Sequence record: NC_041919.1
Source: Escherichia phage HP3
Strand: one strand, 5' to 3'
DNA: 64,000 nt
A program made the translations under genes and the position numbers. Shown piece after piece: positions 32,754 through 61,931 of the stretch; position 1 is the first letter of the stretch; the number at the start of each line of letters is the position of its first letter. Below the pieces are notes generated by a model, which worked only from the letters and a program-made list of their open reading frames with translations, was not told where the DNA came from and ran no database searches.

Positions 32754-32974
32754 TGGCAAAGATAATTATTGAAGGTTCTAAAGATGTGTTAAATGCTTTC
32801 GCAGAATGGTTTAGTAATTCAGGCGAACAGCAATTTAATGAAGCGTGGAATATGGGTGATATTAGTGGAATTTATCCTACGACAGAAATTTCTGTTCAGG
32901 GATATGGCATTCATGAACCTATTCGTTTAGTTGAATACGATTTATGTACTGGTGAGGAAGTCAAATATGATTGA
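32753..32974 (+). CDS. Hypothetical protein
   Basis: 73 aa; stop-start overlap with the GrcA-like gene. Confidence 0.4.
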   Translation: MAKIIIEGSKDVLNAFAEWFSNSGEQQFNEAWNMGDISGIYPTTEISVQGYGIHEPIRLVEYDLCTGEEVKYD

Positions 32975-33233
32975 AGATATTAAAGGTTATAAGCCACATA
33001 CCGACGAAAAAATCGGTAAAGTAAATGCTATTAAAGACGCTGAAGTTCGTTTAGGACTTATCTTTGATGCTTTATATGATGAATTCTGGGAAGCACTAGA
33101 TAATTGCGAAGACTTTGAACTCGCGAAGAATTATGCTGAAAGCCTCGATCAGTTAGCTATTGCTAAAACGAAACTCAAAGAAGCCAGTATGTGGGCTTGT
33201 CGTGCTGTGTTCCAACCAGAGGAAAAATACTAA
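32967..33233 (+). CDS. Hypothetical helical protein (vs.4 position)
   Basis: 88 aa from ATG after SD gaggaag; positional only. Confidence 0.4.
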
Positions 33234-33511
33234 TGGCTCAATTAAGCGCAGGGTTTGGTTATGAGTATTATACTGCCCCTCGTCGTGTGTCTGCTGCTCC
33301 TAAGAAAATTCAAAGTCTTGATGACTTCCAGGAAGTAGTCCGTAACGCTTTCCAGGACTATGCACGGTATCTTAAAGAAGATTCACAGGACTGTCTCGAA
33401 GAAGATGAAATTGCTTACTATACGCAGCGTCTTGAACAGCTCAAAAATCTACATGAGGTTCGTGCCGAAGTTTCAAAGTCTATGAATAAATTGATTAGAT
33501 TTAAAGAATAA
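33233..33511 (+). CDS. Hypothetical protein
   Basis: 92 aa; ATG overlapping the upstream stop. Confidence 0.45.
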
Positions 33512-33514
33512 CTG

Positions 33515-33543
33515 TTTACTTTTCCTCTTGACTGTGGTATAAT
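33515..33543 (+). promoter_or_regulatory. Early promoter upstream of regB
   Basis: -35 tttact, 17 nt spacer, extended -10 tggtataat. Confidence 0.6.
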
Positions 33544-33570
33544 TTTTCTATCAGTTAAGAGGAGAATAAC

Positions 33571-34032
33571 ATGACTATCAACACAGAAGTTTTTATCCGT
33601 CGAAATAAGCTTCGTCGTCACTTTGAGTCGGAGTTTCGTCAAATTAACAATGAGATTCGTGAGGCATCAAAAGCAGCAGGGGTCTCATCGTTTCATCTAA
33701 AATATTCTCAGCATCTTCTTGATCGTGCAATTCAACGGGAGATTGATGAGACATATGTTTTTGAATTATTCCACAAAATAAAAGACCATGTTTTAGAAGT
33801 TAATGAATTCCTGAGTATGCCTCCGCGTCCTGACATTGATGAGGATTTTATTGATGGGGTTGAATACCGTCCTGGACGTTTAGAAATCACAGATGGAAAT
33901 CTTTGGCTTGGATTTACAGTTTGTAAACCTAATGCGAAGTTCAAAGACCCGTCGCTTCAATGCAGGATGGCAATTATCAATAGTCGTCGTTTACCAGGAA
34001 AGGCTTCTAAAGCAGTAATTAAAACTCAATGA
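33571..34032 (+). CDS. regB: Sequence-specific endoribonuclease RegB
   Basis: 153 aa; MTINTEVFIRRNKLRRHFESEF... matches recalled T4 RegB. Confidence 0.85.
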   Translation: MTINTEVFIRRNKLRRHFESEFRQINNEIREASKAAGVSSFHLKYSQHLLDRAIQREIDETYVFELFHKIKDHVLEVNEFLSMPPRPDIDEDFIDGVEYRPGRLEITDGNLWLGFTVCKPNAKFKDPSLQCRMAIINSRRLPGKASKAVIKTQ

Positions 34033-34039
34033 GGTAAGC

Positions 34040-34585
34040 ATGAGAAAAGCACTACTCGCTGGTCTATTGGCCATTTCAATGATGGCACATAGCTCCGAGC
34101 ATACTTTCAGTAATGTCCAACTCGATAACATGCGTTACGCGTATCAATTCGGGGAACAATTTTCTAAGGATGGAAAATATAAAACACACAAAAATATCCA
34201 CAAGAGCGGATTAGGTCATATAATGGCTGCTATTTTATGGCAAGAAAGCTCTGGCGGAGTTAATTTAAAATCTAAACCAAAGCATCATGCCTATGGAATG
34301 TTCCAAAATTATTTGCCTACTATGCGAGCGAGAGTCAAGGAACTTGGTTATAATATGACCGATGCTGAAATAAAAAGAATGTTGAATAAACGGTCCAATT
34401 CAGCTTCCTGGGCGTACATTGAACTTTCTTATTGGTTAAATATACATAAGGGCGATATAAGAAAAGCAATATCCTCTTATAATTCGGGATGGAATGTTAA
34501 AGCTGGTTCTAAATATGCTTCTGAAGTCCTAGAAAAGGCTAATTACCTTAAAAATAATAAACTTTTGGAAATAGTAAATGACTAA
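34040..34585 (+). CDS. Secreted lytic-transglycosylase-like protein (vs.1 position)
   Basis: 181 aa; signal peptide MRKALLAGLLAISMMAHS; LWQESSGG resembles an SLT catalytic motif. Confidence 0.5.
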   Translation: MRKALLAGLLAISMMAHSSEHTFSNVQLDNMRYAYQFGEQFSKDGKYKTHKNIHKSGLGHIMAAILWQESSGGVNLKSKPKHHAYGMFQNYLPTMRARVKELGYNMTDAEIKRMLNKRSNSASWAYIELSYWLNIHKGDIRKAISSYNSGWNVKAGSKYASEVLEKANYLKNNKLLEIVND

Positions 34586-34919
34586 AATTTTGGTTTTATG
34601 TATAGGATTAATTTCATTTTCTGCGTTAGCAGATACATCATATACTGAAATTAGAGAGTATGTAAACCGTACTGCCGCGGATTATTGTGGGAAAAATAAA
34701 GCATGCCAAGCTGAATTTGCGCAGAAATTAATATATGCATATAAAGACGGAGAAAGAGATAAATCAAGCAGATACAAAAACGATACATTATTAAAACGAT
34801 ATGCTAAAAAGTGGAATACCTTAGAATGTTCAGTTGCGGAGGAGAAAGATAAAGCCGCTTGTCATTCAATGGTTGACCGTTTGGTAGATTCTTATAATCG
34901 AGGATTGAGTACTAGATGA
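34578..34919 (+). CDS. Secreted/periplasmic small protein (vs position)
   Basis: 113 aa; signal peptide MTKILVLCIGLISFSALA; four Cys. Confidence 0.45.
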   Translation: MTKILVLCIGLISFSALADTSYTEIREYVNRTAADYCGKNKACQAEFAQKLIYAYKDGERDKSSRYKNDTLLKRYAKKWNTLECSVAEEKDKAACHSMVDRLVDSYNRGLSTR

Positions 34920-35383
34920 TTGTAAAATATATCAAGGGCGATATTGTCGCCCTTTTCGCTGAAGGTAAAAATATTGCGCATGGATGCAATTGTTTTCATA
35001 CTATGGGTTCAGGCGTAGCGGGTCAATTAACCAAAGCTTTCCCTAAAATTTTGGAAGCTGATAAATTACAGACTGAATGGGGTGATGTAACTAAACTCGG
35101 TTCTTACTCAGTCTATGAAAAATACTTTAGGACTCATAAAGCGTATTGCTTCAACCTTTATACTCAATTTCAACCAGGGCCAAATTTTGAGTATTCCGCT
35201 TTAATGAATTGTATGTTAGAATTAAATGAGTTTGGTGAAAATAAACTGATTAAACCTACAATCTATATGCCTAGGATTGGTGCAGGCATAGGTAAAGGGA
35301 ACTGGGATATTATTGAGGGGATTTTAGATACATATTCCTCTAAATTAGAAATTGTGATTGTTGATTGGGAACCGTTATTATGA
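34916..35383 (+). CDS. Macro-domain protein (ADP-ribose binding/processing)
   Basis: 155 aa; GDIVALFAEGKNIAHGCNCFHTMGSGVAGQL and C-terminal IGAGIGKGNW resemble macro-domain GDIT...NAAN...GGGV and glycine-rich loop motifs. Confidence 0.6.
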   Translation: MIVKYIKGDIVALFAEGKNIAHGCNCFHTMGSGVAGQLTKAFPKILEADKLQTEWGDVTKLGSYSVYEKYFRTHKAYCFNLYTQFQPGPNFEYSALMNCMLELNEFGENKLIKPTIYMPRIGAGIGKGNWDIIEGILDTYSSKLEIVIVDWEPLL

Positions 35384-35592
35384 ATATACATTATCCACAT
35401 CCATATGACCCAAAGAATAAGGCAGTAATTATTCGTCAATGGGAACGCATTTGCCGTACTAAATGTCCAATTAATAGTCCGCATGATGTAGATAAAGACT
35501 ACATTGGAACATTCGTTGAATATACCTTTATTGATAAGAAAGGTCGTAAACAGCATGTAGAAGAATACTGCTTAAAGGTTACATGGTTATGA
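35380..35592 (+). CDS. Hypothetical protein
   Basis: 70 aa; start overlaps the macro gene end. Confidence 0.4.
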   Translation: MNIHYPHPYDPKNKAVIIRQWERICRTKCPINSPHDVDKDYIGTFVEYTFIDKKGRKQHVEEYCLKVTWL

Positions 35593-35795
35593 GCCAAACT
35601 AGTATTCTTAAAAATGCCCATTGTGAAAAGTGTAAATGGCCAGTTGTTTTTGCTTTATGCAACGATGAAATGGCTTGTGATTTCGATTATTGGTGCTATT
35701 GTTCTAATAAAGGATGCATCAATCATAAAGGTGAAGGATTTTATTCGGGATTTTATCCTTATCCAGATTTCGTTAAAGAAGGTAAACCGAAATGA
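35583..35795 (+). CDS. Cys/His-rich small protein (zinc-binding candidate)
   Basis: 70 aa with HCEKCKW...CNDEMACDFDYWCYCSNKGCINH. Confidence 0.4.
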   Translation: MVMSQTSILKNAHCEKCKWPVVFALCNDEMACDFDYWCYCSNKGCINHKGEGFYSGFYPYPDFVKEGKPK

Positions 35796-35964
35796 ATAGT
35801 TTTGAGTTACAGTATGAAGTGTTACGTGAGCTTGATAATTTAATTGAACTCGCTGTCAATAAAGGTTTTGCCATTGGAATCGGTCAAAAAGATACTGGTC
35901 ATTTAACTATGGAAATATTTAAGCAAAAGCGAATTATTTTAAAACTCCTGGAAATTAATATATG
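35792..35964 (+). CDS. Hypothetical small protein
   Basis: 57 aa ORF (MNSFELQYEVLRELDNL...) with stop-start overlaps on both sides. Confidence 0.3.
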
Positions 35965-36147
35965 AGTCTGAGTAAAGAACAAAAAGATAAATTGTTTGAG
36001 CTTATCCATGAACTTCTAGATGAGCATACAGAAGCAAACACCTTTTATGATGAATACGGCCCGCTATCTCCCGAACAGCAAGAAGAATTTGCTGATCGGT
36101 TTGATAAGAAAGAAAACGAATTAATAGCTTATGTGAATATGCTTTAA
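35962..36147 (+). CDS. Hypothetical acidic small protein
   Basis: 61 aa. Confidence 0.4.
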   Translation: MSLSKEQKDKLFELIHELLDEHTEANTFYDEYGPLSPEQQEEFADRFDKKENELIAYVNML

Positions 36148-36156
36148 GAAGGTGAT

Positions 36157-36738
36157 ATGGCGAGTTTAATTTTTACTTACGCAGCAATGAATGCTGGAAA
36201 ATCTGCTTCTCTTTTGACTGCTGCACATAATTATAAAGAACGCGGAATGGGTGTATTAGTTCTTAAGCCTGCTATTGATACTCGCGATTCTGTCTGTGAA
36301 GTCGTTTCTCGCATTGGAATTAAGCAGGAAGCGAATATTATTACGGATGATATGGATATTTTTGAGTTCTATAAATGGGCTGAAGCACAAAAAGATATTC
36401 ATTGTGTATTTGTAGATGAAGCTCAGTTTTTAAAAACTGAACAGGTGCATCAATTAAGTCGAATTGTTGATACATATAATGTTCCTGTTATGGCTTATGG
36501 GCTAAGGACTGATTTCGCTGGAAAATTATTTGAAGGTTCTAAAGAACTTTTGGCGATTGCAGATAAACTTATTGAACTAAAGGCAGTTTGTCATTGTGGT
36601 AAAAAAGCTATTATGACAGCTCGATTAATGGAAGATGGAACACCAGTTAAAGAAGGTAATCAAATCTGTATTGGTGATGAAATTTATGTTTCTTTGTGTA
36701 GAAAACATTGGAATGAATTAACTAAAAAGCTCGGTTAG
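36157..36738 (+). CDS. tk: Thymidine kinase
   Basis: 193 aa; P-loop AAMNAGKSASL; C-terminal CHCGKKA...C zinc ribbon typical of TK1 family. Confidence 0.9.
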   Translation: MASLIFTYAAMNAGKSASLLTAAHNYKERGMGVLVLKPAIDTRDSVCEVVSRIGIKQEANIITDDMDIFEFYKWAEAQKDIHCVFVDEAQFLKTEQVHQLSRIVDTYNVPVMAYGLRTDFAGKLFEGSKELLAIADKLIELKAVCHCGKKAIMTARLMEDGTPVKEGNQICIGDEIYVSLCRKHWNELTKKLG

Positions 36739-36780
36739 TGCAAAAGTTATAAATAGGTTTATCTAACTAAAGGGGTATAT

Positions 36781-36993
36781 ATGCTACAATTAACTGAAAA
36801 GCAACTTCGCAATCTTACTGTTCTTCAATTAGATGAAATTCGTAGGGAAGTTGGAAATATCATTTCAGCTTTGCGTCGAGAAGTATCACTCAACCAATCT
36901 CCGGCAGACTATACTAGATTGCGAAATTTTGAAAAATACCTTGATAAAGTTAAGGCCGTGCATCGGCATAAAGTAAATACAGGACAAAAATGA
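36781..36993 (+). CDS. Hypothetical protein
   Basis: 70 aa between tk and rI. Confidence 0.45.
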
Positions 36994-37005
36994 TAGGAGG
37001 CCTTT

Positions 37006-37299
37006 ATGGCCTTAAAAGCAACGGCACTATTTGCCATGCTAGGATTAGCGTTTGCTTTATCTCCACCAATTGAAGCGAATGTCGATCCTCATTTTGATAA
37101 ATTTATGGAATCTGGTATTAGGCACGTTTATATGCTTTTTGAAAATAAAAGCGTAGAATCGTCTGAACAATTCTATAGTTTTATGAGAACGACCTATAAA
37201 AATGACCCGTGCTCTTCTGATTTTGAATGTATAGAGCGAGGCGCGGAGATGGCACAATCATACGCTAGAATTATGAACATTAAATTGGAGACTGAATGA
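37006..37299 (+). CDS. rI: Lysis inhibition regulator rI
   Basis: 97 aa; MALKATALFAMLGLAFALSPPIEA signal-anchor; matches recalled T4 RI. Confidence 0.85.
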   Translation: MALKATALFAMLGLAFALSPPIEANVDPHFDKFMESGIRHVYMLFENKSVESSEQFYSFMRTTYKNDPCSSDFECIERGAEMAQSYARIMNIKLETE

Positions 37300-37682
37300 A
37301 ATTCAGCGACTTTTCACAAAGTGGAAAACCTTCAAAGGCAGATGAATACTTAGGTTTATTAATGGCTGCACAAGCTTATTTTCATTCTGCGCATTTTGAA
37401 ACTAAAAGTTATGCTAGACACAAAGCATACGATTTTATTTTCTCTGAGTTGCCAGATTTGATTGATAAATTTGGTGAGCAATATTTGGGGTATTCTGGTA
37501 GAAAATACACGCCTTCTATTCCAGATGCCAGTAAACTTCCTACCGACACAATTAAAATGATTGATCGCATACTAGACCAATCTAACAGCATTTATAAAGA
37601 AATGCCTCCAGCCATTCAAAGCACGATAGATGATATTACTGGGATGTTTTACCAGAGTAAATATCTTCTTTCCCTCGAATAA
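37296..37682 (+). CDS. Hypothetical protein
   Basis: 128 aa; ATGA overlap with rI. Confidence 0.5.
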
Positions 37683-37686
37683 CATT

Positions 37687-37710
37687 AGTCTCCTTCGGGA
37701 GACTTTTTTC
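37687..37710 (+). terminator. Intrinsic terminator
   Basis: agtctccttcgggagact hairpin followed by tttttt. Confidence 0.6.
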
Positions 37711-37720
37711 ATTTTACCGG

Positions 37721-37749
37721 TTTACTTTCCATTTGAGCTGTGATACTAT
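37721..37749 (+). promoter_or_regulatory. Early promoter
   Basis: -35 tttact, 17 nt spacer, -10 tactat, conserved leader acaactatc. Confidence 0.55.
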
Positions 37750-37777
37750 ACAACTATCGGATAAAGAGGAGAACATC

Positions 37778-37966
37778 ATGAAAATTGAAGCACTTAATCA
37801 AGAAGGAAATATCTACGTCATCATTAATGGTGATTTTTTCGTCGACATGGATGAAGTTACTAGTGAAGAACTTGTAGAACTTCTTAAGAAACGTTATGAT
37901 ATGTGTGATGAAGCTGCAACTCATATGGCGTGTGCAATATTCTCTCTTTCATATGTGGTGGAATAA
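37778..37966 (+). CDS. Hypothetical small acidic protein
   Basis: 62 aa from ATG after SD aagaggag. Confidence 0.4.
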
Positions 37967-38169
37967 TGACTAGAATTGAACAAGCAGATAAAATTAAAGA
38001 ATTGGTAGCTTTAATTCGCAAAGCAGATGAGGAACTTAGTGACTTTGCTTGGTTTTCGGCAGGCATTGCAAATAAAGGTATTGAAAAATTTGAAGCTAAA
38101 GTTGATAATGCTTTAGAAGCGTTAGATATGTTTCTTGATGAAATTATCGATCATAATACGAGAGTTTAA
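37966..38169 (+). CDS. Hypothetical small helical protein
   Basis: 67 aa; ATGA overlap. Confidence 0.4.
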   Translation: MTRIEQADKIKELVALIRKADEELSDFAWFSAGIANKGIEKFEAKVDNALEALDMFLDEIIDHNTRV

Positions 38170-38171
38170 TT

Positions 38172-38366
38172 ATGCTAACACGTGAACAGTTTGAAAAAAT
38201 CATTAAATTAGCACGTGATATTGAAATAGATTCATACCAATTAGCAGTTGAGCATTGTGAAGGATATTCATACGACGGTATAGAAGCAGCTAAAAAGGAT
38301 TTGGATAAATCCAAAGCTAAGTTAGTTCAATATCTTGAAATGATTAGGTGGAATAATGAAAACTGA
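38172..38366 (+). CDS. Hypothetical small helical protein
   Basis: 64 aa. Confidence 0.4.
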   Translation: MLTREQFEKIIKLARDIEIDSYQLAVEHCEGYSYDGIEAAKKDLDKSKAKLVQYLEMIRWNNEN

Positions 38367-38529
38367 AAAGCAGATGTTTTTAATGAAGCTAATTGAAGAA
38401 TATGCTAATGCAGTTTCTGACTATGAGTATTCTGCTCGGGAAAGAGGTACAGCTTTCGCAAAGGAAGAAATGAAAATCATGGTTGATGCTCACACAAAGC
38501 TTCAGAATTTTATTGAAAACGTCATTTAA
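38353..38529 (+). CDS. Hypothetical small protein
   Basis: 58 aa (MKTEKQMFLMKLIEEYANAV...). Confidence 0.35.
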   Translation: MMKTEKQMFLMKLIEEYANAVSDYEYSARERGTAFAKEEMKIMVDAHTKLQNFIENVI

Positions 38530-38532
38530 TGG

Positions 38533-38561
38533 TTTACAAGTTGACAAGATTATGATATAGT
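38533..38561 (+). promoter_or_regulatory. Early promoter inside a 13 bp-stem hairpin (PeSL-type)
   Basis: -35 tttaca, 17 nt spacer, -10 tatagt; perfect inverted repeat gttgacaagatta / taatcttgtcaac across 38541-38574. Confidence 0.6.
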
Positions 38562-38589
38562 AATCTTGTCAACTGCCAAGGAGAAGAGA

Positions 38590-38694
38590 ATGAAAGTTTT
38601 GTTTGTTGTGTATGTGATGATTCAATATAATTATCCAATGTTTACTTATAATCTGGTGAACAACATTATTGATATTATTCAAAGGAGTATGTAA
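38590..38694 (+). CDS. Possible 34 aa hydrophobic leader peptide
   Basis: MKVLFVVYVMIQYNYPMF... preceded by SD aaggagaag. Confidence 0.25.
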   Translation: MKVLFVVYVMIQYNYPMFTYNLVNNIIDIIQRSM

Positions 38695-38696
38695 TT

Positions 38697-39254
38697 GTGG
38701 GTGAGTCGAAGAGAATCAATATGAAACGATTAGTATTAGAAGTTAGTCCGCTTTTTGGTGAATTAGCTATAGAAAAAGTAAATAATATGTATCGTTTGAC
38801 ACAAGAAGACGATATGCTATATTTTACGCCTAGTGAAATCATTCATTTAACCCAAATTGAATATCCTTATACTGATAAAATAGTAAGCATCAATGATGAG
38901 CACAAAATTCATTTTTATTCTTCATGCCCAGGATTTAATATTAAAAGTGAGTCAATGTGTTTATCAGTTATCCATTGGGATAGCTTTATAGCTAAGATTA
39001 AATATTTTTATTATTCTAATGAAAGAAAACATAGTTTAAAATGGCTCAAAAATTGCAATGCTATTATTACTAACGCTTGCAATCAGAATGATGAAACTGT
39101 TTTAAACGTATCAAAATGCTATGAAGATGGTGATGTCTTAACTATTCGTCAAATTGATGATTTTCGATCGTATATTGTCACATTTACCAAAGACGAAGCT
39201 ATTGCGCTAAAGACTTATCTCGATTCTGTCATTCCAACTATGATTTCAAAGTGA
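38697..39254 (+). CDS. Hypothetical protein, paralog 1 of a pair
   Basis: 185 aa, GTG start after SD aaggag (alternative ATG at 38721); C-terminus KDEAIALKTYLDSVIPTMISK resembles the next ORF. Confidence 0.45.
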   Translation: MGESKRINMKRLVLEVSPLFGELAIEKVNNMYRLTQEDDMLYFTPSEIIHLTQIEYPYTDKIVSINDEHKIHFYSSCPGFNIKSESMCLSVIHWDSFIAKIKYFYYSNERKHSLKWLKNCNAIITNACNQNDETVLNVSKCYEDGDVLTIRQIDDFRSYIVTFTKDEAIALKTYLDSVIPTMISK

Positions 39255-60252: not shown

Positions 60253-61931
60253 AGAATTTTAAACTAAACCGAGTTAGGTATCAAAATATAATGTCAGTAG
60301 GTGGAAATCCTATTGACATTCAACTAGATAAGGTTCAAAAAACTCTTATTACTGGACGAAATGGCGGTGGTAAGTCTACTATGTTAGAAGCCATCACATT
60401 TGGGCTTTTTGGCAAGCCATTTCGTGATGTAAAGAAAGGTCAATTAATAAACAGCACAAATAAGAAAGAACTTTTAGTTGAACTGTGGATGGAATATGAT
60501 GAGAAAAAGTACTATATCAAAAGAGGACAAAAACCAAACGTTTTCGAAATCACCGTTAACGGTACACGTCTTAATGAATCTGCCAGCAGTAAAGATTTCC
60601 AAGCAGAATTTGAACAGCTTATCGGAATGTCATATGCCAGTTTCAAGCAGATTGTTGTCCTTGGTACAGCAGGGTATACCCCTTTCATGGGTTTGTCGAC
60701 CCCTGCGCGAAGAAAGCTTGTGGAAGACCTGCTTGAGGTAGGAACATTAGCTGAAATGGATAAGCTTAATAAAGCACTAATACGTGAATTAAATTCACAA
60801 AACCAAGTGCTTGATGTTAAAAAAGATAGTATTATCCAACAAATTAAAATATATAATGATAACGTTGAACGCCAGAAAAAATTAACGGGTGACAACCTTA
60901 CTCGTCTACAAAATATGTATGATGATTTGGCAAAAGAAGCTAGAACGCTAAAATCGGAAATAGAAGAAGCTAATGAAAGATTAGTTAATATTGTTTTAGA
61001 TGAAGACCCGACTGATGCATTTAATAAAATCGGTCAAGAAGCAGTTTTAATTAAATCAAAAATTGACTCGTATAATAAAGTCATTAATATGTATCACGAA
61101 GGTGGATTATGTCCAACCTGTTTGTCACAATTAAGTTCCGGTGATAAAGTTGTTTCTAAAATTAAAGATAAAGTTTCTGAATGTACGCATTCGTTTGAAC
61201 AGCTTTCAACGCACCGTGATAATTTAAAAGTTCTTGTTGATGAATACCGAGATAATATTAAAACCCAGCAGTCGTTGGCAAATGATATTCGCAATAAAAA
61301 GCAATCTCTAATCACGACAGTAGATAAAGCTAAAAAAGTTAAAGCAGCTATAGAAAAAGCATCATCCGAGTTTATTGACCATGCTGATGAAATAGCACTG
61401 CTTCAAGAAGAACTTGATAAAATTGTTAAGACAAAAACTAATTTAGTAATGGAAAAATACCACCGAGGAATTTTGACTGATATGCTCAAAGATTCTGGTA
61501 TTAAAGGTGCTATTATTAAAAAGTACATTCCATTATTTAATAAGCAGATTAACCATTATCTTAAAATAATGGAAGCGGATTATGTGTTTACATTAGATGA
61601 AGAATTTAATGAGACAATTAAATCCCGTGGTCGTGAAGATTTTAGTTATGCTTCATTTAGTGAAGGTGAAAAGGCACGAATTGATATTGCTCTTTTATTT
61701 ACTTGGCGTGATATTGCTTCTATCGTATCTGGTGTTAGTATTAGTACATTAATTCTTGATGAAGTGTTTGATGGGTCATTTGATGCCGAAGGTATTAAAG
61801 GTGTAGCTAATATTATAAATTCAATGAAAAACACTAATGTTTTTATAATTTCGCATAAAGACCATGACCCGCAAGAATATGGTCAGCATCTTCAAATGAA
61901 GAAAGTTGGTCGATTTACTGTAATGGTTTAA
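60249..61931 (+). CDS. 46: Recombination endonuclease subunit gp46 (Rad50/SbcC-like ATPase)
   Basis: 560 aa; Walker A GRNGGGKST; central coiled coil with CPTC zinc hook; C-terminal LILDEVFDGSFD; starts with GTG. Confidence 0.9.
   Translation: MKNFKLNRVRYQNIMSVGGNPIDIQLDKVQKTLITGRNGGGKSTMLEAITFGLFGKPFRDVKKGQLINSTNKKELLVELWMEYDEKKYYIKRGQKPNVFEITVNGTRLNESASSKDFQAEFEQLIGMSYASFKQIVVLGTAGYTPFMGLSTPARRKLVEDLLEVGTLAEMDKLNKALIRELNSQNQVLDVKKDSIIQQIKIYNDNVERQKKLTGDNLTRLQNMYDDLAKEARTLKSEIEEANERLVNIVLDEDPTDAFNKIGQEAVLIKSKIDSYNKVINMYHEGGLCPTCLSQLSSGDKVVSKIKDKVSECTHSFEQLSTHRDNLKVLVDEYRDNIKTQQSLANDIRNKKQSLITTVDKAKKVKAAIEKASSEFIDHADEIALLQEELDKIVKTKTNLVMEKYHRGILTDMLKDSGIKGAIIKKYIPLFNKQINHYLKIMEADYVFTLDEEFNETIKSRGREDFSYASFSEGEKARIDIALLFTWRDIASIVSGVSISTLILDEVFDGSFDAEGIKGVANIINSMKNTNVFIISHKDHDPQEYGQHLQMKKVGRFTVMV

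Follow-up and report, generated by a model that had tools for sequence, protein, structure and literature searches.

Phage T4 tk.4 (adfM) in Escherichia phage HP3: a stand-alone ALC1/TARG1-like macro domain predicted to remove ADP-ribose from phage DNA

Introduction

DarTG systems stop phage replication through DNA ADP-ribosylation, and the early region of Escherichia phage HP3 raises the question of whether a small open reading frame (ORF) between vs and tk encodes a protein that undoes such modification. We analyzed a stretch of 64,000 nucleotides from this phage (record NC_041919.1; hereafter the window), in which an earlier note, made from the letters alone, had placed a macro-domain protein of 155 residues between these two genes; the ORF listing has it at exactly that place (Table 1). 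The note had suggested that the protein could reverse host-imposed ADP-ribosylation or regulate phage-imposed marks. Our results showed that the ORF is phage T4’s own tk.4, now also called adfM, and that its macro domain and its anti-DarTG2 role are already on record. What we add to the literature is a mechanistic point, namely that the T4 protein is predicted to be a Gln-type enzyme, for which the mutational targets are Q84 and N25, and not a lysine. We consider it likely that tk.4 of T4-type phages, a stand-alone macro domain of the ALC1/TARG1-like class encoded in the early regB-vs.1-vs-tk.4-tk.3 block, de-ADP-ribosylates phage DNA, by a mechanism most of whose steps we infer.

Results

The window product and T4 Tk.4 (AAD42667.1) share 155 of 155 residues, so T4 does carry the gene, a point that the earlier note had left undecided. 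In T4 (AF158101) tk.4 lies at 60922-61389 and is syntenic, between vs and tk.3; it was first sequenced in X04567.1, where it was named ‘ORF 60.5’, and the RB18 record places ‘Tk.4; contains A1pp phosphatase motif’ between the same two genes. The ORF DNA matched 648 phage records by megablast, nearly all from Tequatrovirus or related T4-like phages, and identity reaches at least 99% in 106 of these records; positions 33000-39000 of the window are 100% identical to Escherichia phage HP3.2. GenBank labels on many of the matched records read ‘macro domain protein’, ‘Poa1p-like family protein’ or ‘phosphatase’. By tblastn, Tk.4 homologues were found in 2845 of 50,697 phage records; they are spread over many phage groups, whose hosts belong to many genera, including Escherichia, Klebsiella, Salmonella, Vibrio, Acinetobacter, Pseudomonas and Campylobacter. 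These phage-wide matches (648 megablast and 2845 tblastn records), together with a Pfam score above the gathering threshold, place the ORF beyond chance.

Tk.4 is a macro domain of the ALC1/TARG1-like class. The Pfam Macro profile (PF01661) matched residues 22-132, over profile positions 2-113 of 118, with 27.7 bits, which exceeds its gathering score of 22. A sequence search of the PDB returned Bt_1257 (1.3e-9), yeast Poa1p, SCO6735, DarG of T. aquaticus (Taq) and M. tuberculosis, and human TARG1, and a profile built from 107 homologues matched Bt_1257 at 1.8e-19, TARG1 at 3.9e-16, SCO6735 at 3.9e-15 and M. tuberculosis DarG at 4.6e-14. AlphaFold2 run from the single sequence gave an unusable model, with a predicted local distance difference test (pLDDT) score of 38.6; the 107-sequence alignment was used instead and yielded a model with a pLDDT of 96.0 and a predicted template modelling score of 0.91. 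This model has the three-layer alpha/beta/alpha macro fold and is superposable on solved macro domains, and its top Foldseek matches were TARG1, Poa1p, Bt_1257 and DarG, each at probability 1.00. The earlier note had staked its proposal on structure prediction, and a macro fold is what AlphaFold2 and Foldseek predict. The three motifs that it had quoted are likewise in the product: GDIV at residues 8-11, HGCNCFHTMGSGVAGQL at 22-38 and IGAGIGKGNW at 121-130. The ADP-ribose-binding residues D9, N25, G31-S-G33 and I121-G-A-G-I-G-K-G128 are all present and are kept across the family.

The genetic evidence on function comes from a bioRxiv preprint of 20 November 2025, in which a T4 transposon library was grown on DarTG2-expressing E. 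coli by the HIDEN-SEQ approach; tk.4 was the single significant match of this screen, and a clean tk.4 knockout made T4 DarTG2-sensitive, whereupon the gene was renamed adfM, for anti-DarT factor macrodomain (10.1101/2025.11.20.689424). These experiments demonstrate that T4 needs tk.4 on DarTG2 hosts. The authors of the preprint saw a structural likeness to DarG of M. tuberculosis, and in their words it ‘seems likely’ that the protein takes ADP-ribose off DNA enzymatically (10.1101/2025.11.20.689424). T4 without adfA and adfN remains DarTG2-resistant (PMC11257639), so that a further factor was to be expected, a gap that the tk.4 result fills. T5 is DarTG2-sensitive (10.1101/2025.11.20.689424; PMC11257639), and a search of the whole T5 genome with the Tk.4 family profile found no member, the best match scoring 9.6 bits as compared to 211.7 bits for the window control. 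Of the two roles that the earlier note had offered, reversal of host-imposed ADP-ribosylation therefore stands, because tk.4 alone among the T4 genes proved necessary in the presence of DarTG2 and its knockout is sensitised (10.1101/2025.11.20.689424). The substrate that this result implies is ADP-ribosyl-thymidine in DNA and not a protein adduct, which refines the original proposal. T-even phages counter these defences in layers: DarTG1, which modifies guanine, is met by AdfA and AdfN, and DarTG2, which modifies thymidine, by Tk.4/AdfM. The identity of the ORF with adfM explains why phage HP3 should plate on DarTG2-bearing E. coli, which is of use in host-range prediction.

Conservation of the active site was followed in a family alignment of 107 sequences and in a bacterial set consisting of the best 80 of at least 525 loci. 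MAFFT shifted the Gln of Bt_1257 and SCO6735 by three columns, and the HMMER and hhalign alignments were relied on. The KGD motif of Tk.4 aligns with the KGD of TARG1, Bt_1257 and SCO6735; G8 occurs in 101 of the 107 family sequences, and position 9 has D in 81 sequences and N in 26; the Asp or Asn at this place in macro domains makes contact with the adenine of ADP-ribose. Within the first ligand-binding loop, H22 is found in 102 sequences, N25 in 106, and G33 and A35 in all 107, while H22, N25 and Q84 are invariant in the 80 bacterial loci. The equivalents of N25 are Asn27 in SCO6735 and an Asn each in DarG and PhiKZ gp104, and activity is lowered by mutating this residue in SCO6735 (N27S; PMC9411070), in gp104 (N23A; PMC13309987) and also in DarG.

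The residue at the catalytic position sets Tk.4 apart from DarG and TARG1. Q84, in the motif N-L-Y-T-Q, is invariant in the family (107/107). In the hidden Markov model alignment (HMMER), NlYTQ of Tk.4 faces YLITK of TARG1, with Q84 opposite Lys84, and hhalign puts Q84 opposite the catalytic Lys of Taq DarG (FNFPTK). In the Gly-rich loop, where I121, G122 and G124 are invariant and W130 is kept in 105 of 107 sequences, GaGiagGdW aligns with TARG1 GCGLDRLQW, and the catalytic Asp125 of TARG1 is replaced by G126. Thus, Tk.4 is without the residues that DarG and TARG1 use. The spacing from this Gln to a conserved Tyr (Q84 to Y93) is nine residues in Tk.4 and in 74 of the 107 family members, the same as in TARG1 and DarG; SCO6735 has 14, Bt_1257 has 15 and most bacterial relatives of Tk.4 have 12.

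The at least 525 bacterial loci with Tk.4 relatives came from a scan of species-representative genomes, and the best 80 mostly encode stand-alone proteins of about 150 residues. A large stand-alone bacterial family of Gln type, 33-43% identical to Tk.4, carries after the Gln a loop that is intermediate in length and in many cases basic, and its genes have no conserved partner; examples among loci L007-L084 come from Pelagimonas, Ruegeria, Calothrix, Desulfobacter, Vibrio aestuarianus and Hymenobacter. Within the 5-kb flanks of the 80 loci, tblastn with a single P. aeruginosa DarT2 query, which has limited sensitivity, detected no DarT2, and no neighbour conserved across lineages was found at these loci. 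Shared neighbours were lineage-specific, with at most eight loci per cluster, and by inspection looked housekeeping-like (for example, SecA-like and aminoacyl-tRNA-synthetase-like). An origin of the T4 clade from an orphan DarG antitoxin was rejected on these grounds, i.e. 80 bacterial loci without a DarT2 detected by that one query and without a cross-lineage neighbour.

Two apparently bacterial homologues, P0072 and P0118, assigned to metagenome-assembled genomes of Bacilli and Culicoidibacterales, were set aside; they actually lie on T4-like phage contigs and therefore give no information on bacterial context. The contigs JBOFGC010000414.1 (loci L003 and L005) and JBOFQK010000158.1 (L004 and L008), filed under ‘Bacilli bacterium’ and ‘Culicoidibacterales bacterium’, are mis-binned phage contigs and carry T4-type genes for Rnl1, PNKP, a Dda-like helicase, dCMP deaminase, a T4 spanin and a DNA ligase.

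Locally, regB is followed by vs.1, vs, tk.4, tk.3, two small ORFs, one Tk.2-like ORF and tk, so that tk.4 is flanked by vs (34578-34919) and tk (36157-36738), with tk.3 and three small ORFs before tk. Overlapping vs and tk.4 coordinates are also found in the T4 and RB18 records, and the ATGA overlap of these genes suggests translational coupling inside one pre-replicative operon. The features of the gene itself are collected in Table 1.

Table 1. The tk.4 (adfM) gene and its sequence features, in window coordinates
Feature	Position	Strand	Remark
tk.4 / adfM coding sequence	34916..35383	+	ATG start, 155 residues plus stop; single stand-alone macro domain (ORF listing)
ATGA overlap, vs stop (TGA) / tk.4 start (ATG)	34916..34919	+	read from sequence
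G8-D9 codons (KGD motif)	34937..34942	+	D9 at adenine-contacting Asp/Asn position
First ligand-binding loop, residues 22-38 (HGCNCFHTMGSGVAGQL), including H22 and N25	34979..35029	+	
Gln84 codon CAA	35165..35167	+	at catalytic Lys position of TARG1 (K84) and DarG (K80); equals SCO6735 Gln85
Gly-rich diphosphate-binding loop, residues 121-130 (IGAGIGKGNW)	35276..35305	+	
ATGA overlap, tk.4 stop / tk.3 start	35380..35383	+	read from sequence

A scan of positions 32800-36800 for sigma-70 promoters and terminators stayed at background level, with 13 promoter-like sites against 14.3 expected, and was uninformative on regulation. Just upstream of regB, at 33515-33543, is the sole site of this region that is strongly sigma-70-like and has an extended -10 (TTTACT-17-TATAAT, with TG before); it is a plausible candidate for the early promoter of the regB-vs.1-vs-tk.4 block. 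A perfect 8-bp GC-rich hairpin (AAGGGCGA-tatt(g)-TCGCCCTT) lies at 34934-34954, within codons 7-13 of tk.4. The scan called it minus-strand terminator-like, and in some GenBank records a ‘terminator’ is among the features under the tk.4 match; the hairpin, taken in its context, folded no better than shuffled sequence (z -1.0).

Downstream of tk.3, two small ORFs of 70 and 57 residues (35583-35965) precede the Tk.2-like ORF; they are absent from T4, and their RB18 counterparts are RB32ORF110c and RB32ORF109c. The 70-residue product is Cys-rich (CEKC...CNDEMAC...CYCSNKGC) and resembles a small zinc-binding protein. A single divergent Tk.2-like ORF of 61 residues (35962-36147) stands upstream of tk, at a place where T4 and RB18 carry a tk.2 plus tk.1 pair; by eye, Tk.1 and Tk.2 of T4 look like mutual paralogues, which makes this a variable mini-family. 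On the other side of tk.4 (34040-34919), the N-termini of Vs.1 (MRKALLAGLLAISMMAHS...) and Vs (MTKILVLCIGLISFSALA...) resemble signal peptides. Vs is annotated as ‘valyl-tRNA synthetase modifier’, and such a start is odd for a protein that would act on a synthetase of the cytoplasm. On a related phage contig, a Vs.1 homologue has a Pfam SLT (lytic transglycosylase) match, and in minimal medium vs was the most depleted T4 gene in the HIDEN-SEQ preprint (10.1101/2025.11.20.689424).

Discussion

How might a macro domain without the catalytic Lys and Asp of TARG1 protect T4 from DarTG2? A precedent is provided by SCO6735 of S. coelicolor, which together with Bt_1257 of Bacteroides forms a Gln-type subclass of ALC1-like macrodomains, with Gln85 of SCO6735 at the catalytic Lys position (PMC9411070). 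SCO6735 works faster than DarG or TARG1 in stripping DarT-made thymidine-ADP-ribose off DNA, it can rescue E. coli from DarT, and it has no activity on guanine adducts; its Q85A variant is inactive and N27S nearly so, and the mechanism proposed for it is water-mediated, with the Gln positioning the distal ribose (PMC9411070). By analogy, we infer that Tk.4 is a glycohydrolase that depends on its own Gln, and the hydrolysis of thymidine-ADP-ribose on single-stranded DNA by Tk.4 finds indirect backing in the DarTG2-specific phenotype of the tk.4 deletion.

On a host with the toxin-antitoxin defence DarTG2, DarT2 would be set free upon infection and would ADP-ribosylate thymidine N3 in TNTC motifs of single-stranded phage DNA, and replication would be blocked. 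Tk.4 is predicted to hold the ADP-ribose via the KGD contact to adenine, the HGCNC...GSG loop and the IGAGIGKG diphosphate loop, and to cut the N-glycosidic bond between ribose and thymine, which would release ADP-ribose and restore the DNA. In the place of a catalytic Lys or Asp, Gln84, held by Asn25, would position the distal ribose and the transition state, and an ordered water would carry out the acid-base step. The chemistry of Tk.4 is probably that proposed for SCO6735, and not that of DarG or TARG1.

Several points weigh against this assignment. Tk.4 lacks not only the catalytic Lys of DarG and TARG1, as seen with both HMMER and hhalign, but also the five-residue-longer ‘mobile loop’ that has been credited with the high DNA activity of SCO6735. 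The genetic evidence is that of a preprint, in which DarTG2 was plasmid-borne, and a search of the literature library for an enzyme assay of T4 Tk.4 found none, the preprint itself saying only ‘seems likely’. Furthermore, the macro domain of ALC1 reads poly(ADP-ribose) and is not an enzyme. Since ALC1 homologues also conserve a Gln at the Q84 position (PMC9411070), this residue alone is no proof of catalysis. Finally, DarT is inhibited through interaction by catalytically dead SCO6735 as well (PMC9411070), so a non-enzymatic contribution of Tk.4 is possible.

The last point leads to the alternative that survives best, although we regard it as unlikely: Tk.4 might block DarTG2 entirely without catalysis, by direct binding and inhibition of DarT2 or by shielding ADP-ribosylated DNA, in the manner of an antitoxin mimic. 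The missing Lys would suit such a role, the inhibition of DarT by dead SCO6735 (Q85A) in vitro exceeds that by dead DarG or TARG1 (PMC9411070), and the anti-DarT factors AdfA and AdfB are known from escape-mutant analysis, AdfB having been termed an antitoxin mimic (PMC11257639). However, D9, H22, N25, Q84 and both Gly loops are kept near-absolutely in 187 phage and bacterial sequences, and such conservation of an SCO6735-type constellation predicts an enzyme rather than a toxin-specific binder. In addition, the bacterial relatives have no DarT2 partner detected with the one query used, and Tk.4 lacks the dedicated DarT-binding domain of DarG.

The remaining alternatives keep the enzyme and change its substrate. 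T4-type phages encode three ADP-ribosyltransferases, Alt, ModA and ModB, all of which modify arginine. Tk.4 might mainly erase or tune the marks that these enzymes leave on host proteins, or RNA-linked adducts, with DarTG2 protection as a side effect; this was the second role suggested in the earlier note. The presence of the three transferases (background in PMC9503650) and the ability of SCO6735 and TARG1 to hydrolyse Glu/Asp-linked protein ADP-ribose too (PMC9411070) would fit this idea. It nevertheless found no support and is very improbable: the marks are Arg-linked, cleavage of Arg-ADP-ribose by this class is not reported in the literature examined, in which the activities are on Glu/Asp, thymine and uracil (PMC9411070, PMC13036486), and the depletion of tk.4 in the transposon screen was specific to the presence of DarTG2 (10.1101/2025.11.20.689424).

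We give equally little credence to a chiefly RNA-acting Tk.4, which would take ADP-ribose off uracil or other RNA adducts and protect phage transcripts and not DNA. TARG1, DarG and SCO6735 all reverse uracil-N3 ADP-ribosylation of single-stranded RNA (PMC13036486), and RNA-targeting ADP-ribosyltransferase defences against T-even phages, e.g. CmdTAC, exist; yet CmdT modifies adenine, and its modification is described as irreversible (PMC13036486), and the sole recorded phenotype of tk.4 is against DarTG2, whose toxin modifies DNA thymidine (10.1101/2025.11.20.689424; PMC11257639).

The annotation as a phosphatase raises the further alternative of a small-molecule enzyme, i.e., an ADP-ribose-1''-phosphate phosphatase or a Poa1p-like O-acetyl-ADP-ribose deacetylase that cleans up metabolites of NAD (nicotinamide adenine dinucleotide) and ADP-ribose. 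We know of no T4 pathway that makes ADP-ribose-1''-phosphate, the labels ‘phosphatase’ and ‘A1pp phosphatase’ are transferred Poa1p-type names and not tests, the DarTG2-specific phenotype would be left unexplained, and the active sites differ, Poa1p having Ser at the Q84 position, all of which makes this role hardly credible.

Removal of thymidine-linked ADP-ribose from phage DNA remains the reading that we prefer, and comparison with known macrodomains defines what kind of enzyme would perform it. SCO6735 (PDB 5E3B) and Bt_1257 (PDB 2FG1/2AFC) are about 20-29% identical to Tk.4. Q84 and N25 of Tk.4 align with Q85 and N27 of SCO6735, whereas Gly23 and Ser32 stand where SCO6735 has Val25 and Lys34, and Tk.4 does not have the longer basic ‘mobile loop’ of the two proteins (9 residues compared to 14-15). 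As that subclass is defined by the loop, Tk.4 is a sister group of it and not a member.

Tk.4 also differs from the Lys-type enzymes. In human TARG1/OARD1 (PDB 4J5S), the Lys84/Asp125 dyad corresponds to Gln84/Gly126 of Tk.4, and in DarG of DarTG2 (T. aquaticus and M. tuberculosis; PDB 5M31, 5M3E, 5M3I), Lys80 corresponds to Gln84. DarG also has a C-terminal DarT-binding domain, which the 155-residue Tk.4 lacks, and sits in an operon with the DarT toxin, whereas tk.4 belongs to an early gene block of the phage, with vs and tk.3 as its neighbours. The NCBIfam DarG equivalog NF048014 matched Tk.4 with 30.3 bits against a cut-off of 250 (E 2.5e-7), at positions 2-146 of 338 and thus in the macro half only, and the PADLOC DarG model matched at 1.3e-9, both of them weak yet significant matches that fit a macro domain. 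Judged by these alignments, Tk.4 is not a DarG-clade protein. Yeast Poa1p (PDB 6LFQ-6LFU) has small ADP-ribose derivatives as substrates; its phosphatase class is defined by the fold, a His23/Ser30 loop and phosphatase activity on ADP-ribose-1''-phosphate. Phage HP3 differs from T4 itself not in the protein but downstream of the gene, where it has two additional small ORFs and lacks one Tk.1/Tk.2 paralogue.

The name AdfM is also borne by gp104 of PhiKZ, a macrodomain of the chimalliviruses that, like Tk.4, guards a phage against DarTG2 and for which removal of DarT2-made ADP-ribose from DNA was seen in vitro (Cell Rep 2026, PMC13309987). However, gp104 keeps the FPTK motif of DarG, and so is of Lys type, and matches DarG at 9.4e-25, whereas Tk.4 is of Gln type; between gp104 and Tk.4, BLASTP matched 23 residues only (E 0.005), and hhalign gave a probability of 96.5%. 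From sequence comparison, T4 and PhiKZ AdfM are different clades of one class, and anti-DarT2 macrodomains seem to have entered phages on two or more occasions, with independent origins behind one name. A joint reading, which we offer tentatively and which could well prove wrong, is that T4 AdfM and its relatives represent a third subtype of thymidine-ADP-ribose DNA hydrolase, combining an SCO6735-like Gln with the short loop of DarG and TARG1; that the stand-alone bacterial members are general repair enzymes for de-ADP-ribosylation of DNA (or RNA); and that T4-like phages took such a host repair gene, and not an orphaned DarG, while PhiKZ-like phages gained a DarG-type enzyme separately.

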